64,000 bases of DNA from a virus: the IMG/VR virus record IMGVR_UViG_3300048838_000238, positions 1-64,000 of that record, one strand, 5' to 3'. Shown here piece after piece: positions 901 through 54,719 of the stretch. The notes beneath the pieces are model-generated. The model was not told the origin of the DNA, did not search any database, and saw nothing but the letters and a program-made list of their open reading frames with translations. The stretch's first letter is position 1; the number at the start of each line of letters is the position of its first letter. The position numbers were made by a program, and so were the translations under genes.

Positions 901-937
901 TATTCGCCGCCGCGTGGACTATATTGGAGTGATATAG
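901..937 (-). promoter_or_regulatory. Sigma28-like promoter (CCAA-N15-GGCGAATA) with palindrome 919-937 over the -35
   Basis: tattcgcc at 901, ttgg at 924, ctatatt-ggagt-gatatag at 919-937. Confidence 0.75.
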
Positions 938-938
938 G

Positions 939-1493
939 CTAAAAATCTAGCAGAAATTCGCGGAGCAAGTCCAGTAGGCGCGGTTCGTCTGAATGGCGAT
1001 CGTTCCACGGGCGCGGCGCGAGCCAGACGCGGCCACCGAATCTCTGGAATTCTCGACAGTTTCCAGCGTAGTCGTCGATCAGCAGCGACTCGGGAGAAGC
1101 ACAGAACCACTTCGGAGGCGCGCCGGCGCGGCTCCTGCAACTCAGCAGCACCGGGATCTCGGGGTAGTGCCGCTCGGCCCAGGCCCGCTTTCCGTCGGCG
1201 CAGCCCTGATACTTGGTCGGAGAAGTCAGAAAGCAGACGCCGTCCTTGCCGAACGTCCGCAGTGCCAGATCTACGATCCGATCGGCTTCCTCGGTCTTTG
1301 GCAGACCGGCCCAGAAGTCTTGATCCAGCGGCCCCCAGAATGTTTCAGAGTCCATGCCAACCAGCGGACACGGATCATAGACGAGTTCGCCGCGATGTCC
1401 TCCGACTCGATACGGACACGGCAGCTTGTGAAACTCGCTTGCGCCGCGCATCACGTCCGCGACTACGCCGTCCATGTCAAGCAAGCATTTCAT
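939..1493 (-). CDS. HAD-family 5'(3')-deoxyribonucleotidase-like protein
   Basis: N-terminal LDMDGVVAD, central FLTSP, LLIDD and RPWN motifs. Confidence 0.8.
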   Translation of the reverse strand: MKCLLDMDGVVADVMRGASEFHKLPCPYRVGGHRGELVYDPCPLVGMDSETFWGPLDQDFWAGLPKTEEADRIVDLALRTFGKDGVCFLTSPTKYQGCADGKRAWAERHYPEIPVLLSCRSRAGAPPKWFCASPESLLIDDYAGNCREFQRFGGRVWLAPRPWNDRHSDEPRLLDLLREFLLDF

Positions 1494-1496
1494 CGG

Positions 1497-1943
1497 CTAC
1501 TCCGTTGTCGGCGGTGGTTCCGGCGGTGCCGGGGCGGCGACTGACTCGAATGGGAACAACCGGGGATCGAAAGGAATGTCCAGGAGTTCAGCAGGTAGCT
1601 TACCTTCTTTGACCCAGATTGTGGTCTGAATCGCGCAGGCGACATTCCACATCGCCATCGGCAAGTGCGGCTCGTCTTGCCAACCAGAGACTGCCTTGGC
1701 AAGGTGCCGCGAAGCGCTGTCGAGATAGCGAGAAATCGGGATACCGGCTTCCCAGTTACGGTCGCCGTACTTCAGACAGCCGGTTTCGTAGACGCAGGCC
1801 AGTTGATGCAACGCGCCGTAGGGTACGAGGTCGAAGCGGCCTTTGCCTAACTGGACGTCGCGTACCGCGCCGGTGCCGAACTCTTGCCGCTCGCCTGAAT
1901 CCTTGAACTGCATCGCGAGAACAGCCGCCTCTAATTCCGTCAT
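1497..1943 (-). CDS. dATP/dGTP diphosphohydrolase-like protein (DUF5664)
   Basis: DSGERQEFGTGAVRD...KGRFDLVP...GCLKYGDRNWEAGIP...SASRHL...HL; start placed at 1943 because of an ATGA overlap. Confidence 0.8.
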   Translation of the reverse strand: MTELEAAVLAMQFKDSGERQEFGTGAVRDVQLGKGRFDLVPYGALHQLACVYETGCLKYGDRNWEAGIPISRYLDSASRHLAKAVSGWQDEPHLPMAMWNVACAIQTTIWVKEGKLPAELLDIPFDPRLFPFESVAAPAPPEPPPTTE

Positions 1944-2065
1944 GTCCCAAGTTCCACCATCCAAAGTTGAATCAGCACAGTTGCCAAGATGAATATAGCA
2001 AGCCCTTGCGGAGTGATCGGCGGCAGCCGTCCGCAGTCGTCCGTCACAATTAAATCCACCGTCAT
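1940..2065 (-). CDS. 41-aa single-pass membrane peptide (not in the ORF track)
   Basis: MTVDLIVTDDCGRLPPITPQGLAIFILATVLIQLWMVELGT; ATGA overlaps with both neighbouring genes. Confidence 0.6.
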   Translation of the reverse strand: MTVDLIVTDDCGRLPPITPQGLAIFILATVLIQLWMVELGT

Positions 2066-3222
2066 CGCAGCGCCTCGACATTCACTGTCGTGCGGGCGCA
2101 CTCGCCGTGATCGCGATTAAAGACGATGCTGCAAATGTCCCGTGGCGAACGGTAGCCAGCACCGTGCGCATAATTGTCGCCGGGGATCAGCGTCCGAAAG
2201 CTCTCGATCTTTTGCGAGCCAATGTCTTTGCGAGTGTCATGGTGGACATGCCCGGTCAGCCACCGTCGATGCTTGCACCGGCCCCACGCTTCGGCCTTGT
2301 CTTCGCACATCACTCGATACAACGCTTCCGGCTTGCACTGGTGTCCGTGGTGAATGCCGATGAGATTCTGCCCGAATTCGTACCAGTGAAAAACGTCAGG
2401 GGAAGTGTCTACGGTTAGTCGAGGATCTCGGCTGTAATAGCCCTCGATGACCATACTCAGCATGATTGAGGTCTGGTCGTCGTGATTGCCGATCTCATTG
2501 ATGACGTGGACTTTCTTGTGCTTCTCCAACGCGCGGTCGATCAGATACCGCATGATGGTGACGCCGACGCGAGTCACCTTGGCCCACCGCGTATCGACGT
2601 CCAAGTGGTGACCGCTCCGGCGAGTCAGATTCTCAGTCGTGTCCGTGTGGAACCAATCGCCAAGATTTACGATCAGCGCCTGATCGGCAGCGGGAGTTGC
2701 TGCCAATACTTGGTCGAACCCGTTTGTCATCAACTGAGTTGCGATCTTCAGGTCGTAATCTTCTCCAGCATCTTCATCCCAGCAGTAGAGCCCGATATGG
2801 GCATCGCCGATCGGATAGACCGCCAACTTATCTTTGACCGTCACCTTCGGCTGCTTTGATCGTTTGGCCGGCTTCACCGACTGGCAGATCGAAGTGGCCA
2901 GTTCTTCGGAGAAGATCTTCAGCCGGTCTTGATCGGCGGTCGTCTTCACCCATTGGAGCTTCTGGACGCCGTCTGCGTCGTACAGCGTCGAAGTGCCTTT
3001 GACGTAGTGCGTCTCGGGACACATCTTCGTCATGTCGTGCTCTGGCGACCAGCCTTGCAGTGCTGCCTTTTTCTTCACCGCCGCGTAGTGCCGATGAGCT
3101 GCCGCCTTGTCGATGCCCAGCTTCTTGCCGATCTGTGCGTAACTCATCACGCCGACCAGAGCACACACTTCGCGTTGCCGCTCCGTGGTGGCGAAGTCAC
3201 TCAGATCGCTGACGGCTGCCAT
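2062..3222 (-). CDS. Calcineurin-like metallophosphoesterase with N-terminal HTH
   Basis: GDAHIG, LGDWFH, GNHD, HHGH and GHVHH motifs; N-terminal SYAQIGKKLGIDKAAAHRH. Confidence 0.85.
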   Translation of the reverse strand: MAAVSDLSDFATTERQREVCALVGVMSYAQIGKKLGIDKAAAHRHYAAVKKKAALQGWSPEHDMTKMCPETHYVKGTSTLYDADGVQKLQWVKTTADQDRLKIFSEELATSICQSVKPAKRSKQPKVTVKDKLAVYPIGDAHIGLYCWDEDAGEDYDLKIATQLMTNGFDQVLAATPAADQALIVNLGDWFHTDTTENLTRRSGHHLDVDTRWAKVTRVGVTIMRYLIDRALEKHKKVHVINEIGNHDDQTSIMLSMVIEGYYSRDPRLTVDTSPDVFHWYEFGQNLIGIHHGHQCKPEALYRVMCEDKAEAWGRCKHRRWLTGHVHHDTRKDIGSQKIESFRTLIPGDNYAHGAGYRSPRDICSIVFNRDHGECARTTVNVEALR

Positions 3223-3252
3223 ACTGCTGATTCCGTTCAGGTCGGGGGGTCG

Positions 3253-4507: not shown

Positions 4508-6550
4508 TTATGCAGCCACTCCAAGTCCATCCAGTTGCAAGAACTGCTCTTTCGTCAATAGAGTGACTCCAGCTTGGCTTCCGCACGGCTCCCACGGCTT
4601 GGCAAGATTCGGTGGCAGCATAACCTCACGGCAGCACCACGCGCCGCCTGTGCCCATCTTCCCTGGCGAGTCGTAAAGATAACCATCTTCCCCACGTCCG
4701 TGGCCGTATGAGTCGAGATACTTGCAGATCGCTTGGTTCTTATTCCAAACCGCCTGCAAGCCTGCGATTGAATGCCCGCTACGTCCGTAGCAAACTCCCC
4801 AACCACGAATCAGCGCGGACACGAATTGCTCGTACGATTCGATCGCGTACCATTCCACAACCGTGAACCATTGAGCGATGTCTTCCCAGCCAGCCTTAAA
4901 GTAACTTCGCCCGTTCCCGGAAATGAACGGCGTATTTTGGTGAACGCAGAAGTCACCGAACATCGCAATGTTACGCGGGTTCTTCTCGGGGAGCTGGCCA
5001 TTCCCGCGAACGCCAGCCTTGAGGATCTGCAAGGCACCCCACATCGTTGATCCGCTACCACGGCGAGTCGTTACGCGACAGTAGCTCGACATCGGCGAGC
5101 ACTTGACGGACCACTTCTCGCCGATCTGCTTGTTGCGCATCGTATCGCGGACAACTTCCGCAGCGTTATGCACGCAGTTATGAACTCCAATCCCCTCGGC
5201 AACGTAGGAGTTGTCGCCTTCCACTTCCATGTTATAGACGTCGCCCGTGAATGCTTCCGTTTCAACGGATCGAACTCGTCTCCACACATGCTTGTCTTCG
5301 CGACGAAAGAATCGACCGTTGCCGACATCCTTTTTTCTCGGTGTCTTCCTGAACATGACGTCCCATCGCGGAAGTCGTTTCTTGACACCATGACTTGCCT
5401 TTGGATTCGACAAGCGAATCTGAGGATTGTAACCAAGGGCGTTTGCGATATCCCACATTGCCAACGCTAGATCGCGAGACACCGTGACACCCTGCCAATT
5501 GTCGTCGTAAGTTCGGTCGTGACCGTCTCCTGACATCCAGCCAAACAGCAGCGACTCGACGAATTCGGCTGGGCCGCTAAGCAAGTCCGCGTGGGGCTTC
5601 TTATTTCCAGCGCCACCGGGACCACATAGCGACTCAAATAGCCTAGCCCATTGAGTGCCTTGAACATGAACTTTACATGTGTTGGCACACTCGCGAATTT
5701 GAATCCGCCCTTCTACGCCCCACGCATCTCGCAGTAAATCCACCAGTTCTTGCGCCAAAGTGTCACGTTCTGTGATCGAGAACGTCCACGTAACCTGACC
5801 CTTATTTGTCGATCCCTCAGATAAGAACAGGCCGAAGATTCTCCCTGCGGCTGCGTCCAATGAAATCAAGTCGGGAACAACGTGCTTTGTGTACTCGATG
5901 CACGTCTTATCTTTCGCAAGAGGGCCTGTGTTGAATTTCCTTTTCCCGTACGTTTCCCTCGTCGCATAATGACGCTTCAGAACGGTCAGATGCGCAGACG
6001 TCTGCAAGACGCTACTCGACACAGGCAAGTAACGAGGTATGGCAACAAAGTCACCAGACTTGATGTCACCAGCCTTAACGTATCCATGATCCGTTAACAC
6101 CGGATGTTCCTTGGTCATCTTCAATCCGCGATGACCAAAAAGCTTCATATTTACCAGCTCTTTTGGTTCATGCCTGATGAACAGATGAGTGACGCGGCCG
6201 ATGTTCCTTTCGGCAGTCAACACCTTCTCTCCAAGCCTGATTTCGTCGATCGGCTTGTTCGATCCGTCCGCCATTCGAACGCGAGTTCCCTTCGGAAAGC
6301 AGCTTGACTCCGGGGCCTGATTGTTCCGCGCCTTGCGGAAAAACGGCAACGCGGTTTTCTCACGCTCCGCCTGCTCGATGCGGTCTTTCCATTCGTCACG
6401 AGGCACGAGCCAGTCTGAACTGAAACTCGGCGCGGCCGACATTTCGGCTGGGTCGATGATGAGCCCGCAAAAACCTGGGATGGCCTTTGCGTCCCGATCA
6501 AAGTCGACGTCAATCAGATTCGGATTGACTTGGAATAAATCAATTGCCAT
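4508..6550 (-). CDS. Papain-like (C1) cysteine peptidase interrupted by an intein
   Basis: Spliced extein reads NQAPESS/CVHNA (Q..SC motif), with SGHSIAG (His) and LDSYG (NSWG equivalent). Confidence 0.8.
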   Translation of the reverse strand: MAIDLFQVNPNLIDVDFDRDAKAIPGFCGLIIDPAEMSAAPSFSSDWLVPRDEWKDRIEQAEREKTALPFFRKARNNQAPESSCFPKGTRVRMADGSNKPIDEIRLGEKVLTAERNIGRVTHLFIRHEPKELVNMKLFGHRGLKMTKEHPVLTDHGYVKAGDIKSGDFVAIPRYLPVSSSVLQTSAHLTVLKRHYATRETYGKRKFNTGPLAKDKTCIEYTKHVVPDLISLDAAAGRIFGLFLSEGSTNKGQVTWTFSITERDTLAQELVDLLRDAWGVEGRIQIRECANTCKVHVQGTQWARLFESLCGPGGAGNKKPHADLLSGPAEFVESLLFGWMSGDGHDRTYDDNWQGVTVSRDLALAMWDIANALGYNPQIRLSNPKASHGVKKRLPRWDVMFRKTPRKKDVGNGRFFRREDKHVWRRVRSVETEAFTGDVYNMEVEGDNSYVAEGIGVHNCVHNAAEVVRDTMRNKQIGEKWSVKCSPMSSYCRVTTRRGSGSTMWGALQILKAGVRGNGQLPEKNPRNIAMFGDFCVHQNTPFISGNGRSYFKAGWEDIAQWFTVVEWYAIESYEQFVSALIRGWGVCYGRSGHSIAGLQAVWNKNQAICKYLDSYGHGRGEDGYLYDSPGKMGTGGAWCCREVMLPPNLAKPWEPCGSQAGVTLLTKEQFLQLDGLGVAA
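5177..6301 (-). mobile_element. 375-aa intein with LAGLIDADG homing endonuclease
   Basis: Block A CFPKGTRVRMADG, block B MTKEHPV, endonuclease motifs FGLFLSEGS and LFGWMSGDG, block F VYNMEVEG, block G GIGVHN/C. Confidence 0.95.
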
Positions 6551-7509: not shown

Positions 7510-7809
7510 CTAAACGGTGATCCCGCGAGCCCGGAACAGTGCCTTGACGGCTCCCGGAATCTGGGCGCGAAGGAACGGATCGATGATGCTCCGCTCGATG
7601 AACTCGGGGATGTACGGCAGATCGATAATGACCGCGAAGTGATCGAAGGCTTGCTCGGCAGCCGAGACCAGCGGCGCATAGTCGCTGGCATCCAGATTGC
7701 CGTCCGCCAAGACTTCGGCGACCACCTCCCACAACGATCCGACGTTGAGAATTCCTGCCTCCTGGACACGCCCCTTGAGTCGATCCTGGAGCGATTCGAA
7801 TAGATTCAT
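7510..7809 (-). CDS. Hypothetical protein, first gene of the peptidase cassette
   Basis: 99-aa ORF with an IDLPYIPEFIE motif. Confidence 0.6.
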   Translation of the reverse strand: MNLFESLQDRLKGRVQEAGILNVGSLWEVVAEVLADGNLDASDYAPLVSAAEQAFDHFAVIIDLPYIPEFIERSIIDPFLRAQIPGAVKALFRARGITV

Positions 7810-7893: not shown

Positions 7894-7912
7894 TTATATC
7901 GGCGCGATATAA
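7894..7912. promoter_or_regulatory. Palindromic operator-like site with no adjacent promoter motif
   Basis: ttatatc-ggcgc-gatataa. Confidence 0.65.
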
Positions 7913-8763: not shown

Positions 8764-8769
8764 GGAAGT

Positions 8770-8796
8770 TATTCGCCGCGATCGCGGTTTTCTTTG
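8770..8796 (-). promoter_or_regulatory. Sigma28-like promoter 6 nt upstream of the ATG (possibly leaderless)
   Basis: CAAA-N15-GGCGAATA. Confidence 0.65.
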
Positions 8797-9006
8797 TTAG
8801 TGGCAATGTCCAGCGGGTTCTGCGGTGCGATCGTTCCATGCGCGAGTCACGCGATCATTCGTGTTCCAAAGGTTTACTCCCGGTTTTCTAGGTGGACCAA
8901 GAGCAAGACAGTCGAGACACAACACGCGGCGCACTTCGCTGAACTTCTTTTTGCGAATCTCGGCTCTGATACTGCCGCAAAACGGGCATGGATTTGGCAT
9001 CGCCAT
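8797..9006 (-). CDS. Lar-like restriction-alleviation zinc finger
   Basis: PCPFCG...VLCLDCLA.GP...AWNDR. Confidence 0.65.
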   Translation of the reverse strand: MAMPNPCPFCGSIRAEIRKKKFSEVRRVLCLDCLALGPPRKPGVNLWNTNDRVTRAWNDRTAEPAGHCH

Positions 9007-11344: not shown

Positions 11345-11716
11345 TTAGCCGAAGAGGCTTGTTTGAATATGTCGTTTTGATATATGTGATTCGCCGGCAG
11401 TTGCTGGTTCTTGGGAAGGTTGTTCTTTAATTCTCGGTGCCGGTTTTGGTGCCGGTTTCGGATTCACCGCGACTGCCGCTACACCCAGGGGCTCGGTCGG
11501 CTGATCGCCTTGCGCCGCTTCCATGAGCCTACTGGACCGGCCTCCGTCGATCGACTCGTAAGCGATATGGCCGTTGCAATTCTTGCAGAGGATGTAGACC
11601 CAGCGCGGATTCTGCGCCGCTACTTTCTTCCAGTTCACCGGATCTCGGTGATTCAGGCAGATGCGGACTCCGCGTTGGCTAGCCAGCGTCACTGTTTTAT
11701 TTTGCTTCCGTGACAT
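11345..11716 (-). CDS. Hypothetical zinc-ribbon protein
   Basis: CLNH...CKNC. Confidence 0.5.
   Translation of the reverse strand: MSRKQNKTVTLASQRGVRICLNHRDPVNWKKVAAQNPRWVYILCKNCNGHIAYESIDGGRSSRLMEAAQGDQPTEPLGVAAVAVNPKPAPKPAPRIKEQPSQEPATAGESHISKRHIQTSLFG
11367..11414 (-). promoter_or_regulatory. Promoter (11388-11414) plus operator (11367-11385) upstream of DUF1257
   Basis: CCAA-N15-GGCGAATC; atatgtc-gtttt-gatatat. Confidence 0.7.
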
Positions 11717-15009: not shown

Positions 15010-15057
15010 GTATAGCAGGGTGATATAGGTTATTCGCCTCGCGGGACGGAATCTTTA
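15010..15057 (-). promoter_or_regulatory. Promoter TAAA-N15-GGCGAATA (15031-15057) plus operator (15010-15028)
   Basis: Minus strand taaagattccgtcccgcgaggcgaataacctatatc. Confidence 0.8.
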
Positions 15058-15086
15058 CTCTCGGCGATCGTTGCATTCAAGAGGCG

Positions 15087-15573: not shown

Positions 15574-15621
15574 TAGTATCAGTTCGATATAGGTTATTCG
15601 CCGCGTGAGACAGAATCTTTA
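15574..15621 (-). promoter_or_regulatory. Promoter TAAA-N15-GGCGAATA (15595-15621) plus operator (15574-15592)
   Basis: Minus strand taaagattctgtctcacgcggcgaataacctatatc. Confidence 0.8.
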
Positions 15622-15930
15622 GCCGGTTTCTTCGCTATCGCTTGCGGCACCTTGCTCCACGACAGGCGGCGGATTAACGATCGCGTCGATGTTCGGGATC
15701 GTGGTATCGAGAAGTGCGGCCAGTGCTCGCAACTGCTCTCCCATTTTGGTTGCCTGCTTGGCTCTCTCGATGATACTGTTCACCGTCGCGAGGCGCTGGC
15801 ACGGGTCCGCTGAACATCCGACCGGCGGCCTGATGCGGCCGCCTAAGAATTCGTCCATTTCTTTCCAGGTCAATTCGACGATCGCATTGCCATAATCGCG
15901 ATCACTGGACGTGTACGCTATAACCTTCAT
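15619..15930 (-). CDS. Hypothetical protein
   Basis: 103-aa ORF with GGAG RBS. Confidence 0.55.
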   Translation of the reverse strand: MKVIAYTSSDRDYGNAIVELTWKEMDEFLGGRIRPPVGCSADPCQRLATVNSIIERAKQATKMGEQLRALAALLDTTIPNIDAIVNPPPVVEQGAASDSEETG

Positions 15931-17482: not shown

Positions 17483-17530
17483 CTACATCGTAGTGATATA
17501 TGTAGTTCGCCGCGAGATGCACGATATTGG
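17483..17530 (-). promoter_or_regulatory. Promoter (17504-17530) plus operator (17483-17501) upstream of the AAA gene
   Basis: CCAA-N15-GGCGAACT; ctacatc-gtagt-gatatat. Confidence 0.7.
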
Positions 17531-18730
17531 TTATTTCATAACCACATTTGTCAGCAGCTTCCTGCCAGAATGAAATGCCCACGACTCGCCCCTCTTGCCG
17601 CCCGGCTTCAGCACCATATTGTCGATCCGTCCAAACTTCCTCACGAGGCCAACCATGTCGATCACCAGAGCCGACGGCTTGCGAGAATGCGTCCTGATGG
17701 CCCGGCCAACTTGTTGGTAGTAGACGGCCAATGACATAGTCGGTCGCGCCAGAATCACGCAATCGAGTTCCGGGTAGTCGAATCCGATCGAAAGCACTCC
17801 CACGTTTGCGACCGCCGGGATATCGCCAGCACGAAACCGACGAATGACATCGTCCCGTTCTAGCGGATTCGTTTCCGCAGCGACCACAGCCACGCCGGGC
17901 ACGTTATCCGCCAGAGACTTTGCTTCCTTGACGAATCGAGTGAAGATCAGCGGCTTGCGACCGCTCTGCATGGCAGACTTGGTTTCAGCAACTAGTCGTC
18001 CGAAAAAGTCTCTGCCCATCGACCGTTCGACAGAAGCGTCCGTGTAGTCGGCACCAGTCGAATTCGGCTTGAGCAAGCTCGTATCGATCGCCAGCGAATC
18101 CCGGTACTCCAGAGGGCAAAGATAGCCGTCAGCAAACAGGTCCGTGATTTGCGAGTAGTGAACCAGATCGCGGAAGATGCGAGGCCGCGTTCGCGTTAGA
18201 AACCTCAACTCGCTCCCGAATGAGTTGCTAGCCAGTCGAAACGGAGTCGCTGTCAATCCCAAGATGCGGCTGCCGGCCATCGCCGCAACGAAGTCGCGAT
18301 ACATGCCACCCTTCGGATTCACTAAGTGGCATTCGTCTATCAGGACGTACGGTATTCCCGAAAACTTTGCGACTGCCTTATGAACGCTTCCGATCGTGGC
18401 CAGCGTCACCGATCCGATTTGCTTGCTGCCAAAACTGGCTGAGTAGATTTTAGGACGGCATCCGTAGCTGGCCAACTTGGCGGCGTTCTGCTCTAAGATT
18501 TCCTTCGTCGGCTGAAAGACGAGCGTGTCGCCTGGCAAGCGATCCACGATGTTCGCGATCACAAGACTTTTGCCGCTTCCTGTCGGTGCAACAACGATAC
18601 CGTGCCTGTCACGTCGACCGTCGGCAAGGTAGTTCACCGATGACTCGACGGCATCCCTCTGATACGGACGTAGCGTGTACGTCTTGGCCTGCGAGCTGAT
18701 GTCGAACAGTTCTGCTTGCGATGTGGTCAT
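17531..18730 (-). CDS. SF2 DExH helicase (RadD/YejH-like)
   Basis: LRPYQ, APTGSGKS, DECH, GLTATP, LSIGFD, QQVGRAIR. Confidence 0.93.
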   Translation of the reverse strand: MTTSQAELFDISSQAKTYTLRPYQRDAVESSVNYLADGRRDRHGIVVAPTGSGKSLVIANIVDRLPGDTLVFQPTKEILEQNAAKLASYGCRPKIYSASFGSKQIGSVTLATIGSVHKAVAKFSGIPYVLIDECHLVNPKGGMYRDFVAAMAGSRILGLTATPFRLASNSFGSELRFLTRTRPRIFRDLVHYSQITDLFADGYLCPLEYRDSLAIDTSLLKPNSTGADYTDASVERSMGRDFFGRLVAETKSAMQSGRKPLIFTRFVKEAKSLADNVPGVAVVAAETNPLERDDVIRRFRAGDIPAVANVGVLSIGFDYPELDCVILARPTMSLAVYYQQVGRAIRTHSRKPSALVIDMVGLVRKFGRIDNMVLKPGGKRGESWAFHSGRKLLTNVVMK

Positions 18731-19525: not shown

Positions 19526-19651
19526 CTCGCTACTCCAGTGTCAGCGCGGCGTAAACGACTACCGCCACTGCCAATAAGACGGTTACAACGCTAAGCACGA
19601 TCAAGATTACGGTCACGGGTGACTCCTTTCGAGGTTCTTTGTTCCTGCCAG

Positions 19652-20074
19652 TTATTCGCCGCGACCTGGCGTATATCGGAACGATATAGTCTCAGTCCGA
19701 AAGAATTCCACAATGTGCCGCAGCACTTCCATTTCGTCAATGGAGTCGGCCGCGCGGCCGCGCAAGGTATTCAGCAAGACGCGGTCGTAATGCTCAAAAT
19801 CCACGAGCGCCTTGAGCGCGTACTGCCTGGCTAGAGGCCAGATCGCGTAGTCTCCGAATTCATCGTGATGGGCGCGGCACGGAAATAGCCAAGCAGCGCG
19901 TTCTTGATAAGCGGCTTCACGGATTCCGCTGCCACGGGTTATCTCGTGGATGTCGCTACCGCGAGATTTGCACCTCGGGACCGGGCAGCGAAAGAGCATG
20001 TCCGCGCGAAAGGTCTCTCTGGCGTCTTCCATCTGGCGGACTACCTTCCGGCGCTTAGTGCTTTGGTGCCGCAT
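19652..20074 (-). CDS. HNH-like zinc-binding protein
   Basis: CPVPRC...DIHEITRG...FPCRAHH. Confidence 0.55.
   Translation of the reverse strand: MRHQSTKRRKVVRQMEDARETFRADMLFRCPVPRCKSRGSDIHEITRGSGIREAAYQERAAWLFPCRAHHDEFGDYAIWPLARQYALKALVDFEHYDRVLLNTLRGRAADSIDEMEVLRHIVEFFRTETISFRYTPGRGE
19653..19689 (-). promoter_or_regulatory. Promoter (19653-19679) with operator over the -35 (19671-19689)
   Basis: CCGA-N15-GGCGAATA; gtatatc-ggaac-gatatag. Confidence 0.7.
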
Positions 20075-23939: not shown

Positions 23940-23987
23940 CTATATCCTTACGATATAGGTCATTCGCCGCAAGACGGTGAATCTTGC
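23940..23987 (-). promoter_or_regulatory. Promoter (23961-23987) plus perfect operator (23940-23958)
   Basis: GCAA-N15-GGCGAATG; ctatatc-cttac-gatatag. Confidence 0.8.
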
Positions 23988-24556
23988 TGTTCGGCGGAAT
24001 TCTTTTTGATTTGCTCGACGAGCCGCTCAAAATCCTCGTCATGCAGTCCGTCCCAGTCGTAAGTCAGCGAGCCGTGGCGAGCGAAGAACGTCGTCAAAAC
24101 AGCGATCCTTCCGACAACGTGCAAGCACGGCACGACAAAGCAGCACAGCTTAGTTCGCTCGCACACAAACAGCGTTACTTTCCGGCCTCTATTGCACCAC
24201 TTCGCGTTCTTCAGCCACAACTTGTACTCGTCAAGAACCTTTGGATCGTGGTCGCTTCGGCGGCCACGCATCACCGCGCGCTTGATCCTACCGGCCACTT
24301 CTTCGCGGCTCTTTACTGAGTCCCGAGTCCGAAACAAATACTGGTCGATCGCGTGATCTGGTACGGTGATCAGATCCCATTCCGGCAAGATGCCGCTGAC
24401 GTCGAAAGGTGTCTGCGGATGCTCGCTGTCTGGGTGCTGCTGATGAATCGGTTGCTGTTGGCTCCGGTAGGCCATGCGGTCCAGGCGTTCCGCGCGGATG
24501 TTGCGGCCCTTCCGTTGGCGCTTTGAATTGGTGTTCCGTCGCATGGCTGGGCTCAC
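23960..24556 (-). CDS. Hypothetical protein
   Basis: PDHAIDQYLFR...VLTTF. Confidence 0.55.
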   Translation of the reverse strand: MSPAMRRNTNSKRQRKGRNIRAERLDRMAYRSQQQPIHQQHPDSEHPQTPFDVSGILPEWDLITVPDHAIDQYLFRTRDSVKSREEVAGRIKRAVMRGRRSDHDPKVLDEYKLWLKNAKWCNRGRKVTLFVCERTKLCCFVVPCLHVVGRIAVLTTFFARHGSLTYDWDGLHDEDFERLVEQIKKNSAEQQDSPSCGE

Positions 24557-28941: not shown

Positions 28942-28974
28942 GATTTGGATTCCTTCCAAAGCTTGAAGTGGGTA

Positions 28975-29022: not shown

Positions 29023-29023
29023 A

Positions 29024-30598: not shown

Positions 30599-30646
30599 TT
30601 ATGTCATCTCGATATAGGTCATTCGCCGGTCGCGATTGAATCTTGG
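30599..30646 (-). promoter_or_regulatory. Promoter (30620-30646) plus operator (30599-30617)
   Basis: CCAA-N15-GGCGAATG; ttatgtc-atctc-gatatag. Confidence 0.8.
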
Positions 30647-30654
30647 GATTCATT

Positions 30655-32366: not shown

Positions 32367-33118
32367 GCGGCCTTTACAAATTGAGGGTATTTTTCGGCGA
32401 TCTCACGCAACGCTCGTTCGCGCTCCGCTTCGGCGCGACGCCGCTCATGCAGCAAAGACGAGTAGGTTCGCGCCACATACGGATCTGACGACTGAACAAC
32501 TAGAAACCGATGCACAGGTTGAACTCGGTATTGCTGCCTCACACCTTCGCAGTAATGAACCTCTTGAATGCCATAGCCGAAATCGCGGTAGTGCTTTGAG
32601 AACACGTAGGCGATGTTGCGGTGGATTGTTTTCAAGTCCAGGACCAGTACGCGGCCTTCGCGGAAGATCAACTTATCGGGGCGGCATTTCAGCCAGAGCC
32701 CTGTCGCGGTGTGCCGCCACTTGATCGTCGTCTCAACTGGTCCGGGATCGCGCAGCCAGTCGCCGGCCTTCTTGAACAGCGAGTCGGACATCCTCCGCAC
32801 CGCTTCTAGTTCGTTGGACCGCAAGAGAAGCATGTCCGGGTTATCTGCGCGGAACGCATCCCAGACCTTGCCGCGACGGCTCTTGATGTACGGCGGAATC
32901 TCGCGAACAGTCTCTTTGAATTTAGCCGTTTCAAGAACTCTCGTGTGCGTAGCCGTGCCGATATCCAAGTAGCCTTTGCGCGGTTCGCGCTCCTTGCCTC
33001 CGAGTATCCACTTGTCGTGGAACTCAGTAGGTTTGAACAGGTAGTCCGAGAGCATCGAAGCGCTGATCGCGGTTCGATCGGCGTGGTACTGTTCGTTGGT
33101 GACGTTTTCGATTATCAC
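32363..33118 (-). CDS. RecE/exonuclease VIII-like PD-(D/E)xK nuclease (DUF3799)
   Basis: NEQYHAD..ISASML, GTATH..VLE, KCRPD, DLKT, YGIQ..HY. Confidence 0.88.
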   Translation of the reverse strand: MIIENVTNEQYHADRTAISASMLSDYLFKPTEFHDKWILGGKEREPRKGYLDIGTATHTRVLETAKFKETVREIPPYIKSRRGKVWDAFRADNPDMLLLRSNELEAVRRMSDSLFKKAGDWLRDPGPVETTIKWRHTATGLWLKCRPDKLIFREGRVLVLDLKTIHRNIAYVFSKHYRDFGYGIQEVHYCEGVRQQYRVQPVHRFLVVQSSDPYVARTYSSLLHERRRAEAERERALREIAEKYPQFVKAA

Positions 33119-33798
33119 GCTTCCACCGCCGTTTGCATTAACTCGCCGTCCGCCATTCTTCGCAGCCGCTCTCCGAGAATCGGCAACTCGTCTCTGATTC
33201 GCATGGCAACGTAGCACTGCGAACATCCGACTTGTTTTGCAATATCAACGAACGTCCAGTCGTACCGGAATCGAAGATCGATCATCGTGCGCATTGGTTC
33301 GCTAAGCGAAAGCAAAAGCCGATCAAAGCTATCTTCATCTTCCAAGACTTGCCTGTCGTACTCGCAGCCTTCGTCGGCGTAATCTTGCAAGATGGTCCAC
33401 TGCTGACCGCTGGTGCCTTGTACCTGATCGATGGAGGCGGTTTTCTGAAAGACTGCCATCGCTTCTTCGCGAGAAGCGATTCCCTTTGGCCGGCGGCAGC
33501 CGCTCGGAACCAGTTCGCGCAGAAAGTCCGCCACCGCACCATCGATCTGACCCGTCAAGAACGTCGACACCGTGCCGCTTTCGCGCCGGTATCGGTCGAT
33601 CGCGCCCAGTAACCTGATAACCACAACCTGCGATGCGTCATTTATGTTGTCGCCGAAGACGCGACGCGCTGCGCGATAGCGAATCGTCGGCCACCAGTAT
33701 TGAATCAGTTGATCGCGAGCTTGCATGTCGCCGGCCTGCGCCTTGAGGATAAGATCAAGATCCCGATCTGCGTTTGACTTGATCTTCTCTTTCGCCAT
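33115..33798 (-). CDS. Sigma70-family sigma factor, FliA/WhiG-like
   Basis: AQAGDMQARDQLI, LLGAIDRYRRESGTVSTFL..QIDGAVADFLR (region 2), LSEPMRTMIDLRF...TFVDIAKQVGCSQCYV (region 4). Confidence 0.85.
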   Translation of the reverse strand: MAKEKIKSNADRDLDLILKAQAGDMQARDQLIQYWWPTIRYRAARRVFGDNINDASQVVVIRLLGAIDRYRRESGTVSTFLTGQIDGAVADFLRELVPSGCRRPKGIASREEAMAVFQKTASIDQVQGTSGQQWTILQDYADEGCEYDRQVLEDEDSFDRLLLSLSEPMRTMIDLRFRYDWTFVDIAKQVGCSQCYVAMRIRDELPILGERLRRMADGELMQTAVEA

Positions 33799-33857
33799 CA
33801 CACTTCCTTGCAGGCAACAGGCACGCTTTCCTGCGCGAGCCACGATGAAATAAAACG

Positions 33858-34046
33858 CTATGCGGCGCGACGCCATCCGCGCCGCATAGCGAGAAGAGAA
33901 CTACCGCCCTCTTGCGAATCCTTCCATCGCCGATTGACAGTCCATGAGACACGCGCCATCCGGTTCCCTCCGCGCGCTTCGGCGATTCCACTTAACAGGA
34001 CAGAAGTCTTGGTCGCGCTCCTTGCGGTTTCTCGGTCAGTTTCCAT
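33858..34046 (-). CDS. Hypothetical basic protein
   Basis: 62-aa ORF between the promoters and the sigma gene. Confidence 0.3.
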   Translation of the reverse strand: METDRETARSATKTSVLLSGIAEARGGNRMARVSWTVNRRWKDSQEGGSSLLAMRRGWRRAA

Positions 34047-34080: not shown

Positions 34081-34204
34081 CTATGTCAGTGTGATATAGG
34101 CTATTCGCAGCGACTCGGGGAATCTTGGATTGAGTTTTCAGGAATTTCCCTATATCAAGGTGACATAGCTTACGAACTATTCGCTGCGCGTCAACATATC
34201 TTTG
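34081..34204 (-). promoter_or_regulatory. Tandem promoters (34102-34128, 34178-34204) and operators (34081-34099, 34150-34168) upstream of the sigma/recombination operon
   Basis: CCAA-N15-TGCGAATA and CAAA-N15-AGCGAATA; ctatgtc-agtgt-gatatag and ctatatc-aaggt-gacatag. Confidence 0.8.
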
Positions 34205-34228
34205 GTCGAACTTGCAAGATTGCGGTTT

Positions 34229-35359
34229 TTATTCTTGAACAGCCGCGCCGAACAGCCATCCGCGAACGTGATCGGCGACAGCGCGCAACCGCCGATCTTC
34301 AATGTTCTCGCGATACATGCCTGATATCGTGTTGTCCGAATGCCCCATGATGGCGCGAGTCGACAAGTAATCGCCGTGCTGGTCGCCGATCGTCTGGAAG
34401 CCGTGACGTAATGCGTAGAAGCCGCGATTCGCCTCATAGACATCTTGGGACACGCAGAGCTTTTTGAACTCCGCCGACAAAGGATTTGCTTTGGAATCGG
34501 TGAACCAGCATTGGCCGCGCTTCGTGCGGAACACCAGCGGATCGGTGTCGGACTTGCGTGATTCGAGCGCCGCCTGCAACGCCCCGACTGTCTCGGGCCA
34601 CAATGGGCAGCGCCGCGCAATCCCGGTCTTCGGCCTCGGGTAGTCGATCCAGCCGTTTTGCATGTCAAGAGCGCTCACCGGAAGTTGCCCGCAGTCCCCG
34701 TTCCCGAACCCGCAGTTGATCGCTAGCAGGATCATGGCTTTCATCTGGACGTCGGCGGCAGCGATCAGCTTGCGAATCTCGACTGCGTTGAACAGTTTGC
34801 TTCCGGCCTTAGCCTTTTCGCGCCTGGTGACCCTCTTGGCAGGCCGTTTGAAATCCCCGAACCGGACTGGCTTATCGATCAACCCGTTCTCAAACCCATA
34901 CCTCAGAATCACCCGACAGCGAGTGACTTCGTTCCCTAGACTGGTCGCGTTCATGGTCTTCGACAAGGCGCGGCGGAGCTTCATCAAATCATGCGGCTGC
35001 AACTCCTGAACCACGGATGCCTTACCGAGATGCTCGATCATCCGTTCGCACGACTTGTAGTAGTCGTCATACGTCCGGTGGGCAAGTTCGCCACCGTCAC
35101 GCTTACTCTTCGCGTTCGTCATGAACGAGTTACAGAGCGTCATTAGGTCGCAGGCATCGCCGTCGAAGATCCGTGGTGACCGCCCGGACAGAAGATCGTC
35201 CTTGACGCGCAGCCATTCGGCTAAAGCTTTATCAGGGTCCGTGCCGAAGTAGAAGTCGCGGCCTCGAATCCGCTTGCGATACTGACCGGTCTTGTGGAGT
35301 CCCAACGGGAACTTATCGGCCCGCTTGCCCTTACCTGCTTCCGGATTAGAATTGTCCAT
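34229..35359 (-). CDS. int: Tyrosine integrase
   Basis: Arm-binding YRKRIRGRDFYFG, PRPKTG, FYALRHGF, IMGH, ISGMY; adjacent to a tRNA-derived attP. Confidence 0.92.
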   Translation of the reverse strand: MDNSNPEAGKGKRADKFPLGLHKTGQYRKRIRGRDFYFGTDPDKALAEWLRVKDDLLSGRSPRIFDGDACDLMTLCNSFMTNAKSKRDGGELAHRTYDDYYKSCERMIEHLGKASVVQELQPHDLMKLRRALSKTMNATSLGNEVTRCRVILRYGFENGLIDKPVRFGDFKRPAKRVTRREKAKAGSKLFNAVEIRKLIAAADVQMKAMILLAINCGFGNGDCGQLPVSALDMQNGWIDYPRPKTGIARRCPLWPETVGALQAALESRKSDTDPLVFRTKRGQCWFTDSKANPLSAEFKKLCVSQDVYEANRGFYALRHGFQTIGDQHGDYLSTRAIMGHSDNTISGMYRENIEDRRLRAVADHVRGWLFGAAVQE

Positions 35360-35489
35360 TGTCGACCGCTCGCATGGTAGAAAAGTGGTACTAGGGTAGC
35401 TTTTAGGGTAGCGACAAAAATACCAAGTAGACGTTTTACCTGCAAGACAACGACGAAAACCAATAAAAACAAGCATCAAACGACTTCAT

Positions 35490-36319: not shown

Positions 36320-36577
36320 TCACTTGAAGAACTGAATTACGTCGCGTCTGACCTTGCGACGTTTCTTGACTGGAGTGGCCGGAGCGGCGACAGTGCGGAT
36401 GTCTTCAAACGCCTCCAGCGCCTCCGATGTTACGATGTACCGCGACCTCCCGGAAGTCTTGGTTCGGATATCGATCGCCGTTAGTTGCCCTGATCTGACT
36501 AGCGTCAAGACGTGGCTATGGCAGCAGCGCCACCGCTCTGCGATCTCTGCCAAGGTGTAAGAGGCTTGCGCGGTCAT
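36320..36577 (-). CDS. xis: Excisionase-like HTH protein
   Basis: YTLAEIAERWRCCHSHVLTLVRSGQLTAI...RYIVTSEALEAF; near int and attP. Confidence 0.78.
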   Translation of the reverse strand: MTAQASYTLAEIAERWRCCHSHVLTLVRSGQLTAIDIRTKTSGRSRYIVTSEALEAFEDIRTVAAPATPVKKRRKVRRDVIQFFK

Positions 36578-36954: not shown

Positions 36955-37375
36955 TCGTCCCTTCTGGAGTCCCGTTCGTAGTCCGCTTTATCGGCGCGGT
37001 CTTCGTCGTGTAGGCGGCGTTGCTCGCGCTCGTCCGCTTCGTCTTCTGCGTTGGAGGTTCGCCAAGCGTCATAGCTTGCAGGTAGTCCGTCTTGCATCGA
37101 TCTTTACCTCAGTAGAGTTTCAGTGACAGCGGCATAAACCGCCGTTGCTCGCGTATGGTCCGTTAGGTCCGACAGGATCATCGGATGTGTAATGCTCTCC
37201 TGGAATTGCGTACCATCCGTCGCCGTCCGGGTGCGTTACCAATTCCGCCACAGTCCCACATCGCGTGATGCCTCTTGGCTTGTACGGCGCTCAAACTCGC
37301 GACACTAGGCACCGTATCTGCTATCTCGTCACTCGCACCAGATCTATGCTTTTAGCGTGACGTGATTTGAAAAAG

Positions 37376-37448
37376 TTGCGGGCCTTGGAATCGCACCAAG
37401 TTTGCTCTGCTTATGAGACAGAGAAGATGACTACACCTACCGCCCGCA
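37376..37448 (-). tRNA. tRNA with CAT anticodon (elongator Met or Ile2), atypical T-loop
   Basis: Acceptor stem TGCGGGC/GCCCGCA; anticodon arm TCTGT-CTCATAA-GCAGA; T arm CTTGG-TGCGATT-CCAAG. Confidence 0.75.
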
Positions 37449-37698: not shown

Positions 37699-37736
37699 CT
37701 GTTGGCTCCATAAACTGGTTGTGTGTTGATACCAGT

Positions 37737-37773
37737 AATTCGCCCGTCGCAGAACTATATTGGATTGATATAG
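37737..37773 (-). promoter_or_regulatory. Promoter (37737-37763) with operator over the -35 (37755-37773), upstream of the tRNA/xis block
   Basis: CCAA-N15-GGCGAATT; ctatatt-ggatt-gatatag. Confidence 0.75.
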
Positions 37774-49123: not shown

Positions 49124-49142
49124 CTATATCCCTAAGATATAG
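49124..49142. promoter_or_regulatory. Perfect palindrome upstream of the 1502-aa gene
   Basis: ctatatc-cctaa-gatatag. Confidence 0.7.
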
Positions 49143-49193: not shown

Positions 49194-49967
49194 TCACGGG
49201 TAGTTGTACCCCAGCCGGTGCGCTCTGCCATACAGCGAGGAACTGCTGACGTAGTTGTAGGTCCAGGAAATCGGCCAATCGACCCACGCCTGCTTGCCGT
49301 CGCTCGCGACCAGTCTGGGTGTCCCCTCGGTAACGAGCGGCACGGAACTGGCGAGCTTACTGGGCCAGATCGGCGGCGGGATGGGCGGATATCCATAGAG
49401 CCCGACCGCCGATCCCTGCTGGACGGCGCGTACGGCAGTGTATTGACGAAGAGTCTGTTCGACCGCTGGTCCGGTCAGCACGTCGATCGCGCCCCGCTGC
49501 CTGCCAGCTTCCGGCCATTGCACGGTTTCCTGGAACGATTTGACCAGATTTGCCAGCGACAGCGAGCCCGCTGCGTAGGGTATAGTTGCCTTGGCGACGA
49601 TCTGGCTCTGGCAATTCGTAACCAGCGACGCGCGACCTGGATCCGGAAAGTGCGGCGGCGAGATGATTTGCACCCCAGCTAGGGTATCGACCGTCTTTAG
49701 AGTCAAGTGCGTTTCGGTGCCGTTGGGGTGGCAGAAGATCAGATCGCGACCGCTGACCGAGTAGGCTGCTTGCAGAGCCGCCATTTGTGCTTTGATATCG
49801 GCCCGCCGTAACGCTTCGGTTGCCTTATGCGAGATTAGCCAGACCGTGATATTCCACGTTTCTTCTTCGGCCCACGCGGTGCCAGCATCCGTCAGCAGGG
49901 CTTGCCTCTGTGTGGTGACTCGCGTCGTGCCGACCGGGTGCGTGAAATTGCCGTATTTCAGGATCAT
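49194..49967 (-). CDS. Probable distal tail protein
   Basis: Beta-rich 257-aa protein, first structural-looking gene after the tape measure and island. Confidence 0.45.
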   Translation of the reverse strand: MILKYGNFTHPVGTTRVTTQRQALLTDAGTAWAEEETWNITVWLISHKATEALRRADIKAQMAALQAAYSVSGRDLIFCHPNGTETHLTLKTVDTLAGVQIISPPHFPDPGRASLVTNCQSQIVAKATIPYAAGSLSLANLVKSFQETVQWPEAGRQRGAIDVLTGPAVEQTLRQYTAVRAVQQGSAVGLYGYPPIPPPIWPSKLASSVPLVTEGTPRLVASDGKQAWVDWPISWTYNYVSSSSLYGRAHRLGYNYP

Positions 49968-49974: not shown

Positions 49975-49993
49975 TTATATCAGATCGCTATAG
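49975..49993. promoter_or_regulatory. Palindromic operator-like site just upstream of the ATG
   Basis: ttatatc-agatc-gctatag. Confidence 0.55.
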
Positions 49994-52605: not shown

Positions 52606-52626
52606 CGTTCCGTCCTCGTGGCTTGG

Positions 52627-52674
52627 TTATATCTGATTGATATAGGTTATTCGCCGCGCGCTGAACAGTATTGG
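52627..52674 (-). promoter_or_regulatory. Promoter (52648-52674) plus operator (52627-52645)
   Basis: CCAA-N15-GGCGAATA; ttatatc-tgatt-gatatag. Confidence 0.8.
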
Positions 52675-52720
52675 GACCGGCTGGTAAGAAATTGCCGGGA
52701 GAATCTGCAAGTCCCGACGC

Positions 52721-52759
52721 CTTATCCGGACACGAATGCGGACACCGTGTCCGGATAAG
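52721..52759. terminator. 14-bp perfect inverted repeat
   Basis: cttatccggacacg-N11-cgtgtccggataag. Confidence 0.55.
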
Positions 52760-52769
52760 CCTGTCGCAA

Positions 52770-52946
52770 CTACGGCTCCAGAGTTTCCCGGACAATATCC
52801 CGCAGTTCGCGGTTGCCTTCCAGTGCTGGCAGCACCTTCCACAGCACGCGACCGTAGAGGGTGATCGTGCCGTACAGCGATGCGATCAGCTCTCTGGACT
52901 CTTCGGGAGACTCAACCGACGGAAGAAAAGGACGTGCATTGCTCAT
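52770..52946 (-). CDS. Small hypothetical protein
   Basis: MSNARPF start with GAGGTG RBS. Confidence 0.5.
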   Translation of the reverse strand: MSNARPFLPSVESPEESRELIASLYGTITLYGRVLWKVLPALEGNRELRDIVRETLEP

Positions 52947-53132
52947 AATTACACCTCGTTGTGAGGGTTCTGACCCGCCGGACACGTAGCACTATCAATG
53001 CCACGAGTCCTTTATTTTTCGAGGCGGCGGCCGACTGCGCGTCGGTGCTGATAGATTATCGCCGCAACTCTCGTAGCAATCACAAGTTAACGATCAACCG
53101 AAACTTGCGAACTAGCAGACCAGAAAAGAGCG

Positions 53133-53160
53133 ATCCTAGCGTTTAGTGTACGCTTGTCAA
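53133..53160 (-). promoter_or_regulatory. Housekeeping sigma70-type promoter
   Basis: TTGACA-N16-TAGGAT. Confidence 0.5.
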
Positions 53161-53218
53161 CTATCCAAGAATGGAAAGATTTACCGACTGGTTTGAATGG
53201 CGAGAAACTCCGGAATGC

Positions 53219-53611
53219 CTAGCGGTCGGCCAGCAGCGGCACACTTCCGCGATCATCTGGCGGTACGGAATCGTAGCCGCGTAGCCATTCGGATTCCTGC
53301 TCGGGCGATTCGGGACAACAGAGTATTCGATAGCAGCCTTGTAATGCGGCGAGTTGTCCGCATTCGTATGTCTTGTTGTGCGCGGCAAAGAACTCCGGCA
53401 CATTGCACGGCATCCAGGCCAGCACGTCTGTCGGTGGCCATTGCTGGTAGTCGTCCGGCTCGTATCGATGCAGAATCAAGCCGTCCAGGTCAACGAACGT
53501 TTGCGCGTAGTCGACGTGCGCACTTACGCCATCCCGCTCAATGACTGCGACCCAAATAGAATCTCCATCTCCTGGACGTTCAGACGTTGGCATCCATCTC
53601 GGTTTCGTCAT
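53219..53611 (-). CDS. Hypothetical protein (DUF551-like N-terminus)
   Basis: WMPTSERP...VLAWMP; AAGGAG RBS. Confidence 0.55.
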   Translation of the reverse strand: MTKPRWMPTSERPGDGDSIWVAVIERDGVSAHVDYAQTFVDLDGLILHRYEPDDYQQWPPTDVLAWMPCNVPEFFAAHNKTYECGQLAALQGCYRILCCPESPEQESEWLRGYDSVPPDDRGSVPLLADR

Positions 53612-53699
53612 CGGTTCGGATCTCCTTGTGCCGCATCTCGCGGCCACGGTTGGTGGTGTCGTTGCCAAGTTCACAGCGAGACGTGGGAAGTGTGCTGGA

Positions 53700-53963
53700 C
53701 TAGGATTGCTGCCACCCTGCCAATCCATCCTCAGCAGCCTCGGTGGCAGCCACAGCCTCAGCGACGATCTCTGGCCAGCGGTCGGATTCCCACCACTCAC
53801 CGTATGGTGTCAGATTGCCATCGCTGTCGTGTGTCAATTCGGTGCCGTGGTCGTAGGTCAGATCCCACGGGCCACAGTCCGCAGTGGGGACGTAGCCGTG
53901 CATGTCCGCTGACAGATTCTCGCCAAATGATCCGAGATTTGATTTGTGGAATGCGTTCATCAT
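53700..53963 (-). CDS. Hypothetical acidic protein
   Basis: GAGGAG RBS. Confidence 0.55.
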   Translation of the reverse strand: MMNAFHKSNLGSFGENLSADMHGYVPTADCGPWDLTYDHGTELTHDSDGNLTPYGEWWESDRWPEIVAEAVAATEAAEDGLAGWQQS

Positions 53964-54030
53964 CCGTGTTTCTCCTCATGTTGAATTTACTCCCCGCTCA
54001 CTGCGAGACGGGGGTGGGTGGGTGGGGTAT

Positions 54031-54354
54031 TTAAGGTCCTGGTCCGCCAGTATGCTTTCCTCGCCGAATCGTTTTCTTGCCTCCGCCGCCGAGCGTAGCC
54101 CTCCTCACGCCCTTCGTTTTTGTCGCCTGCCTCGGCGGTGGAATCGGCGACGAGTCAGCCGGTGCGTGAGTGCCGCAGTACGCTCGCCAATCACCGCTTG
54201 ACTTGCTGACGTGCGTTACTTTTTTGCGGCAGACTTCGCACGCGGCTTTTAGGCGCGGATATCGACCGTGGCAGTCGAGGCATTCTTTCGCCGACGTGAT
54301 ACTATCTGCGGCGAGCATGTGAGATCCGCACTCAGGGCAGAGTAGGTGCCGCAT
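54031..54354 (-). CDS. Zinc-ribbon protein
   Basis: CPEC, CLDC, CEVC, CGTH. Confidence 0.5.
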   Translation of the reverse strand: MRHLLCPECGSHMLAADSITSAKECLDCHGRYPRLKAACEVCRKKVTHVSKSSGDWRAYCGTHAPADSSPIPPPRQATKTKGVRRATLGGGGKKTIRRGKHTGGPGP

Positions 54355-54572
54355 TACACCGCCTCCACGTACTCGCCACCGGCAGCCGTCACGCCGTCCA
54401 GGGTATTCGGGCCGAGGTCGCCTTCCTCGATCGCGTCGTATGCCGACTGGACGGAGGCTTGGTCTGACGGGTCGCATACGATCCAGCCGACTGATCGCGA
54501 ACCGAATCCGAATTCCCCGACGATCACTTTTCCGGAATCTGTTACTTCGCGTGCTGTCATTTGCTTCGTCAT
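54354..54572 (-). CDS. Hypothetical protein
   Basis: GAGGAG RBS; first gene after promoter 54693. Confidence 0.55.
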   Translation of the reverse strand: MTKQMTAREVTDSGKVIVGEFGFGSRSVGWIVCDPSDQASVQSAYDAIEEGDLGPNTLDGVTAAGGEYVEAV

Positions 54573-54624
54573 CGTGTTTCTCCTCGTGTTAGTTGGTTTC
54601 GTTCTCGCCGGGCTTGTGACCGGC

Positions 54625-54719
54625 CTATATCACCTAGATATCACCGCTTAGTTCTTGAAACTCCAGTCGGCGAGTTGCTTGCGTCTATAGGGTATTCGCC
54701 GCTGATATCAGGATCTTGG
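54625..54719 (-). promoter_or_regulatory. Promoter (54693-54719) and operator (54625-54643)
   Basis: CCAA-N15-GGCGAATA; ctatatc-accta-gatatca. Confidence 0.75.

Follow-up and report, generated by a model that had tools for sequence, protein, structure and literature searches.

A dispersed palindrome at two fixed registers on sigma-28-like promoters of a temperate phage, a probable multi-site operator

The virus record IMGVR_UViG_3300048838_000238 is a complete genome of 105,996 bp, and the window analysed here is its bases 1-64000. A 19-bp palindrome, CTATATC-N5-GATATAG, is dispersed through its intergenic gaps, in most cases at one of two exact distances from promoters that resemble those of sigma-28. 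The sequence patterns suggest that the palindrome is probably a multi-site operator, recognised by one sequence-specific and most likely phage-encoded protein that would block the promoters of a phage sigma regulon. The phage is marked as temperate by its tyrosine integrase gene (34229-35479, minus strand; integrase family match 38.5 bits). About 84% of the genome is coding and nearly all genes lie on the minus strand. Coordinates above 64000 are marked 'genome', and counts of sites and classes refer to the whole genome unless the window is stated.

Results

In the window, 15 sites matched the palindrome with at most two mismatches, against 0.03 expected, and no shuffle reached 15; allowing three mismatches gave 18 sites against 0.67 expected. 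The sequence-only reading, which was made without database searches, had listed 17 positions, and all of them hold a palindrome match, 15 with zero to two mismatches and two (11367 and 15574) with three. The eighteenth match, at 13558, lies within coding sequence and is probably due to chance. Over the whole record there were 25 sites with up to two mismatches, compared with one for the reversed control pattern, and 28 credible sites with up to three. All 28 are intergenic, and a start codon on the minus strand lies 6-214 nt downstream of each. Shuffling the intergenic DNA alone produced 0.04 sites where 23 were observed.

Four copies are perfect (23940, 28975, 49124 and genome 72597). At the ends of the arms, position 1 is C in 22 of the 28 sites and position 19 is G in 15, and within the right arm five positions are kept in 24-26 of the sites. 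The gap between the arms is exactly 5 nt, and the spacer has no shared motif except a weak purine/pyrimidine symmetry at its ends. The exact half-site heptamer (CTATATC/GATATAG) occurs 27 times in the genome and only once, at 86612, outside a palindrome, where a rough estimate from composition predicted about eight stray copies. This scarcity hints at selection against stray half-sites.

Most sites are preceded on the coding strand by the motif (C/T)AAGATTC-N11-GCGGCGAATAAC. A matrix built from the 38-nt promoter motif scored 18-40 bits at 22 minus-strand places and at best 13 bits on the plus strand, and the consensus CAAGAT-N10-GCGGCGAATNAC likewise occurred at 22 minus-strand places and nowhere on the plus strand. 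The textbook consensus for sigma-28 (FliA/SigD) is TAAA-N15-GCCGATAA. The phage promoters are similar, with (T/C)AAG in the -35 element, a fixed 15-nt gap and a -10 element, GCGAATAA, that is a close variant of GCCGATAA, and by sequence the family resembles the sigma-28 type rather than the sigma-70 type. Sigma-70-like promoters are few in this genome, the two best being TTGACA-N16-TAGGAT (53160) and TAGACA-N17-TAGAGT (genome 104471). The earlier description of a palindrome lying over the promoters was correct in that a real dispersed palindrome sits at fixed registers on a promoter family, and needs amending in that these promoters are sigma-28-like and not of the sigma-70 type.

Seventeen sites lie directly on these promoter motifs. 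At 13 of them, which we call class 1, the palindrome starts directly after GCGGCGAATNAC, over the presumed start site. Nine class 1 sites are in the window: 11367-11385, with its three mismatches, abuts the sigma-28-like promoter 11386-11423; 15010-15028 (two mismatches) abuts 15029-15066; 15574-15592, also with three mismatches, abuts 15593-15630; 17483-17501 (two mismatches) abuts 17502-17539, ahead of an AAA ATPase gene; 23940-23958 (perfect) abuts 23959-23996; 28975-28993 (perfect) abuts 28994-29031; 30599-30617 (two mismatches) abuts 30618-30655; 34081-34099 abuts 34100-34137, which is the nearer of the two promoters ahead of the sigma gene leader described below; and 52627-52645 (one mismatch) abuts 52646-52683. 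The gene directly behind the perfect palindrome at 28975 (28708-28959) encodes a protein of the CsrA family (29 bits, cut-off 27). Abutting it downstream is a gene (27113-28708) for a 531-amino-acid P-loop protein with weak, sub-threshold SMC/ABC-type Pfam matches.

The other four sites, class 2, are 919, 19671, 37755 and genome 77310. Here GGCGAAT is preceded, at a distance of exactly 10 nt, by the right arm (CCAATATAG or CCGATATAG), which takes the place of the CCAAGATTC found in class 1 promoters. At 919-937 (one mismatch) the arm CCAATATAG is the -35 element of promoter 899-936; at 19671-19689 (one mismatch) and 37755-37773 it takes the -35 position of promoters 19651-19688 and 37735-37772. 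At 919 and 37755 a G to A change in the arm gives CCAATAT, which is identical to the -35 element of promoter 17513. The position of the arm and this identity suggest that it has a second role as the -35 element. Right after the -10 element, all four class 2 promoters also carry TGGTA, TGGCA or TGATA (899-910, 19651-19662, 37735-37746 and genome 77290-77301), possibly a start-region motif that is replaced in class 1 by the left arm of the palindrome. The operon behind the class 2 promoter 37746 contains a tRNA-Met gene (CAT; 37375-37448, minus strand) as its first feature and a gene for a protein like the excisionase Xis.

Two further sites, 54625 and genome 81895, lie 45-47 nt downstream of a promoter. 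The first (54625-54643) is 47 nt from promoter 54691-54728 and also faces the plus-strand gene 54742-55770. No other long gene is on the plus strand. Gene 54742-55770 diverges from promoter 54702 and palindrome 54625, and its 342-amino-acid product, which has an SHD1 domain at the C-terminus (56 bits), may have a role in lysogenic conversion. The site 34150-34168 is 7 nt further than the class 1 distance from a weaker sigma-28-like match (34176-34213), and by eye it also overlaps the -10 element of a sigma-70-like TTGACG-N16-TAAGCT, which is below the scan threshold.

About nine sites have no promoter motif nearby and form class 3, the bare sites: 7894, 49124 and 49975 in the window and genome 64710, 72597, 85963, 89595 and 102334 beyond it. 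They head packaging/terminase, portal, head, capsid, tail, fibre and lysis-side operons. The site 7894-7912 (two mismatches) lies 84 nt before gene 7510-7809, the perfect site 49124-49142 lies 36 nt before a gene for a 1502-amino-acid FG-GAP tail-fibre-like protein, and 49975-49993 (two mismatches) lies 7 nt before gene 49194-49967. The geometry first proposed for the window, with nine sites abutting a -10 element, three on a -35 element, two further downstream and three without a promoter motif, thus holds.

Conversely, some promoters have no palindrome. These include the best-scoring sigma-28-like promoter, 61738 (61727-61764, minus strand; position weight matrix score 39.8), and promoter 8779 (8768-8805, minus strand; score 33.5). 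Together with the TGGTA-like sequence of class 2, this suggests that the palindrome is a separable module and not part of the promoter.

The window also encodes a phage group-3 sigma factor (33115-33876, minus strand; Sigma70_r2 29.7 bits against a cut-off of 24), whose true start is probably the ATG at 33798. It scored 48.6 bits against the sigma-70 superfamily (cut-off 42.9), and among the subfamilies SigB/F/G matched best, with matches to FliA/WhiG as well. A word search of 5.8 billion proteins found no homologue. Unlike FliA and SigD, this sigma factor is encoded by a phage, and it scores better against SigB/F/G than against FliA models. The gene lies just downstream of the integrase gene, behind two promoter/operator pairs (34150 and 34081), from which a leader of about 300 nt separates it. 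This leader contains, ahead of the sigma start, a 15-bp GC-rich hairpin followed by a T-run (TTTTATTT; 33856-33891, minus strand) that looks like an intrinsic terminator, so sigma expression may also need read-through. From sequence, the phage sigma factor probably reads the sigma-28-like promoter family. With sigma-28-like promoters and a group-3 sigma factor encoded in the same phage, the unit that is silenced would be the phage's own sigma regulon.

Covariation between the arms of the 28 copies was at the level of shuffled data (84.2% of cells paired against 84.6%; score 0.058 against 0.057). Folded as RNA, the perfect copies reached -6.9 to -7.5 kcal/mol and degenerate copies, such as 15574 and 30599, which are unfolded, 0 to -0.7 kcal/mol, with the motif kept. 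Since changes in one arm are not compensated in the other and the degenerate copies stay unfolded, what is conserved appears to be a DNA sequence and not an RNA hairpin. The palindrome carries the signature of a site read by a sequence-specific protein with two-fold symmetry. The sequence-only reading had proposed one dimeric regulator, and the absence of arm covariation fits a sequence-specific DNA-binding protein that is dimeric or bound with two-fold symmetry.

We looked for the binding protein with Pfam scans of the 119 predicted proteins and six-frame family searches of the whole genome. Besides ParB-type proteins, only four genes bear a helix-turn-helix (HTH): those for the sigma factor, the Xis-like protein, an IbrB-like protein with a faint HTH and a protein of 59 amino acids. 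The two ParB-domain proteins sit in modification and packaging cassettes and are not linked to the palindrome. It had been claimed that the window encodes no repressor. This is roughly right, the only recognisable HTH proteins of the window being the sigma factor and the Xis-like HTH_17 protein (36320-36577, minus strand), the latter a weak in-window candidate. The accompanying claim, that the binding protein is encoded outside the window or by the host, is plausible in its first half, with two candidates elsewhere in the phage genome; a host protein, the less likely source, is neither needed nor supported.

One of these is the 59-amino-acid HTH protein (genome 85768-85947), which matches Sigma70_r4, HTH_11, ISL3-HTH and HTH_3 at E-values of 1e-4 to 1e-6 and has a basic N-terminal arm. 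It has no similarity to region 4 of the phage sigma factor. An HTH repressor gene flanked by the palindrome had been suggested as something to look for in the rest of the genome. This gene, whose product is a candidate binder, begins 15 nt past palindrome 85963, with the terminase and portal genes on either side.

The other, picked by eye among the small proteins, is a 121-amino-acid protein (genome 104035-104400) predicted to be a TraY-like single-chain tandem ribbon-helix-helix (RHH) protein. Its gene lies between two operator-bearing promoters, behind the sigma-70-like promoter TAGACA-N17-TAGAGT. A HMMER search gave 14 matches with E-values up to 0.001, of which 12 resembled the query in length; tblastn against phage records and scans with the family alignment gave nothing for this family. 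An AlphaFold2 model built from the query and these 12 homologues (predicted local distance difference test score, pLDDT, 88.3; predicted TM-score, pTM, 0.80) contains strand-helix-helix twice. The best ten Foldseek matches of this model were chains E, F and G of the F-plasmid relaxosome (probability 0.96-1.00, TM-score 0.50-0.63), followed by VirC2 and DndE, and a model from the single sequence also matched single-chain Arc, AvtR and NikR (Z 4.1-4.4). From the relaxosome paper and the chain lengths we infer that chains E, F and G are TraY. Sequence searches of the PDB gave nothing useful for either the RHH or the HTH candidate.

In the F relaxosome three TraY molecules, each a single chain holding a whole RHH 'dimer', occupy adjacent sites in direct and inverted orientation (PMC12117103). 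F-plasmid TraY, AvtR and VirC2 are single-chain tandem RHH proteins, like the predicted fold of the phage candidate, and a plausible geometry would place two RHH monomers on the inverted arms, 12 bp apart from centre to centre. However, TraY is a conjugation accessory protein that acts at oriT, not a genome-wide repressor, and its identity to the phage protein is only 16-20%. Our ranking puts the RHH protein first, as a tentative choice that is somewhat the best of several. The 59-amino-acid HTH protein and another, unrecognised phage protein come next, each a less likely possibility than the RHH protein and one no likelier than the other. A host protein comes last.

Discussion

The arrangement suggests how such an operator could work. 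Most non-structural genes would be driven from about 22 sigma-28-like promoters, probably read by the phage sigma factor. At the 13 class 1 promoters the operator would lie right after the -10 element, over the presumed start site, and at the four class 2 promoters its right arm would itself be the -35 element. In either register the bound protein and the RNA polymerase holoenzyme should exclude each other, so each promoter would be switched off individually. As the sigma gene has two promoter/operator pairs, the regulator would also control the supply of sigma factor. The bare sites most likely act as stoperator-like roadblocks to read-through, or else serve unrecognised late promoters. We infer both repression and the action of the bare sites, as roadblocks or activator sites, from sequence.

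A more specific version of this picture is doubtful. It would make the RHH protein, transcribed by host sigma-70 polymerase, the master repressor of the phage sigma regulon. Its half-site would mimic a -35 element and compete with sigma region 4 at some promoters while covering the start site at others, and the protein would also roadblock every structural operon. If this were true, both the repressor fold and the sigma/anti-promoter logic would be ones not described for phage immunity.

Two readings of the palindrome need no operator. One, which we consider very unlikely, makes it an RNA element such as a 5' stem-loop, a processing site or a weak terminator. The folding of the perfect copies, the position of sites in 5' leaders near ribosome-binding sites and the presence of a CsrA-like RNA-binding protein in the phage are what it would explain. 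It does not fit the arms, which lack compensatory changes and stay unfolded in degenerate copies, nor the loops, which have no common motif, the GGA loops of CsrA-type sites being absent from the spacer. In class 2 the palindrome is upstream of the -10 element and so would not be transcribed from that promoter, in class 1 the left arm would be lost if transcription began about 7 nt past the -10 element, and no T-run follows the sites. The other reading, that the left arm simply serves the sigma-28-like promoter as its initiation region, with the palindrome a by-product, is the least probable of all. The better conservation of the promoter-side arm than of the far arm in class 1 and a lone CTATAG following promoter 54702 are in keeping with it. 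However, about nine sites have no promoter and four lie upstream of the -10 element, while the best-scoring promoter, 61738, has no arm; the right arm is also strongly conserved, and the gap exact.

The remaining readings keep a DNA-binding protein and change its role or its origin. The binder could be a temporal switch with two functions, not a lysogeny repressor with roadblocks. Like phi29 p4 or Mu Mor/C, it would shut the sigma-28-like (middle) promoters and activate the late operons from the bare and -35 sites. The bare sites do occur solely where structural and lysis-side operons begin, 6-214 nt ahead of the first start codon, the class 2 site overlaps the -35 element as activator sites typically do, the 59-amino-acid HTH gene lies in the late region, and by eye a weak GAAT-containing -10-like element lies downstream of 49124 at the class 2 spacing. 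Yet the other bare sites lack a conserved -10-like element at any fixed distance downstream, the start codon comes 6-15 nt after 72597, 49975 and 85963, which leaves no room for a downstream promoter, and the class 2 right arm is already a good -35 element that needs no activator. We think the switch unlikely. Less likely again is that the binder is a host protein and that the phage promoters are plugged into a host regulon. This would account for the lack of a classical CI/Cro-type repressor detectable in the phage by family scans, and for an unrelated virus, described below, that has about 30 copies of the same arms and 5-nt gap and no shared regulator. Against it, the phage has at least two uncharacterised predicted DNA-binding proteins of its own, and the composite promoter-plus-palindrome pattern gave a single match in 185,579 species genomes. 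That match looks like chance, being a lone imperfect palindrome on its locus, by eye in coding sequence. We know of no global regulator with this site, and a full-text literature search for the two arm sequences found nothing relevant. In viral contigs the composite pattern was absent.

The unrelated virus is IMGVR_UViG_3300028891_000081 (128,201 bp, 41% GC). Searching viral contigs for the palindrome alone gave mostly single chance matches and this contig, which has about 30 copies of AA-CTATATC-YGAGR-GATATAG, with a spacer that is conserved and asymmetric. Some copies lie directly before an ATG and others inside long open reading frames (ORFs), four of them in one of 2033 amino acids. It shares no proteins with our phage beyond weak portal-like and intein-like matches, and neither candidate binder is shared. 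With no regulator in common, we set this contig aside as evidence for the operator and took its repeats as a coincidence or a different element.

Several observations weigh against a phage-encoded multi-site operator, or against its proposed binders. The stronger conservation of the promoter-side arm in class 1 suggests that part of the palindrome could also serve initiation. The 41% GC contig leaves chance or a host factor open, at low odds. The bare sites yielded no late promoter, and the sigma-70 type was absent there both by scan and by eye. The 59-amino-acid HTH gene is in a late operon and has no promoter of its own, while the promoter of the RHH gene has no palindrome and the RHH protein matched no Pfam family at an E-value of 0.05 or below. 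No relatives of the phage were found in any collection searched, either by megablast of the fibre gene against phage records or by scans for related loci with the sigma factor and TerL (for TerL the best tblastn identity was 36%). Comparative testing therefore failed, and neither candidate binder is tied to the palindrome by comparison.

Dispersed operators have precedents. Repressors of the L5 type bind more than 20 asymmetric 13-mers, which act in an orientation-dependent manner, are bound by a monomer and comprise operators and intergenic stoperators; the sites have been proposed to block both initiation and elongation (PMC9283540). As with gp71 of mycobacteriophage L5 (cluster A), a temperate phage genome carries one short site in more than 20 copies, here 28 in 106 kb, located both on promoters and in the short intergenic gaps between operons. 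Unlike the asymmetric 13-mer of L5, read by a two-domain monomer, the site described here is a symmetric 7-N5-7 palindrome and most copies take one of two exact registers on promoters that are not of the sigma-70 type. A gp71-like two-domain HTH repressor was not among the 25 families listed per scan of the 119 proteins, which matched 29 Pfam and 72 PHROG families, and no search dedicated to it was made.

The c repressor of phiC31, a temperate Streptomyces phage, binds many conserved inverted-repeat operators on highly similar early promoters. The present phage differs in host group and site, and in having sigma-28-like promoters with a matching type of sigma factor encoded by the phage itself; no homologue of the c repressor was seen, although no search was aimed at one. 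L5 and phiC31 had already been named as precedents for distributed repression, and the analogy is apt. P1 C1 and RK2 KorB/KorA are likewise regulators with a dozen or more dispersed operators each, in classes defined by distance from the promoter. The same division into overlapping, nearby and distant sites applies here. The P1 operators, however, are asymmetric 17-mers, and KorB is a CTP-dependent clamp of the ParB family. What is new compared with these known systems is the combination of a symmetric site, its placement on a sigma-28-like promoter family at two exact registers, and a phage-encoded sigma factor.

If confirmed, this would be a compact and modular circuit, with one phage sigma factor, one type of promoter and one operator used at two registers or alone, and a surrogate host could be used to rebuild and test it. 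The concept of dispersed operators and stoperators would reach past the actinobacteriophages, to a symmetric site and to promoters outside the sigma-70 type. It would also show how a temperate phage silences an autocatalytic sigma loop, with the sigma gene under two operators and a terminator-like hairpin. The four perfect sites and two small candidate proteins make the experiments cheap.

Other features of the genome

The best sigma-70-like promoter (53160-53133, minus strand) precedes a leader of about 185 nt and an ORF of 58-71 amino acids (52770-52985) without a family match. The unit it heads (52720-53165) includes a long inverted repeat at about 52720-52762; it stands alone and could be expressed by the host polymerase in a lysogen.

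The record has a 127-bp direct terminal repeat (window 1-589; genome 105508-105996), which falls within a 27-bp tandem repeat coding for GAASNSGY-type repeats. As an ORF on the minus strand seems to continue across the record ends, these look arbitrary, as in a circular or permuted assembly, and not like true termini. A 680-amino-acid protein (4508-6550) carries an intein with a LAGLIDADG-like insert (Intein_splicing, 47 bits).

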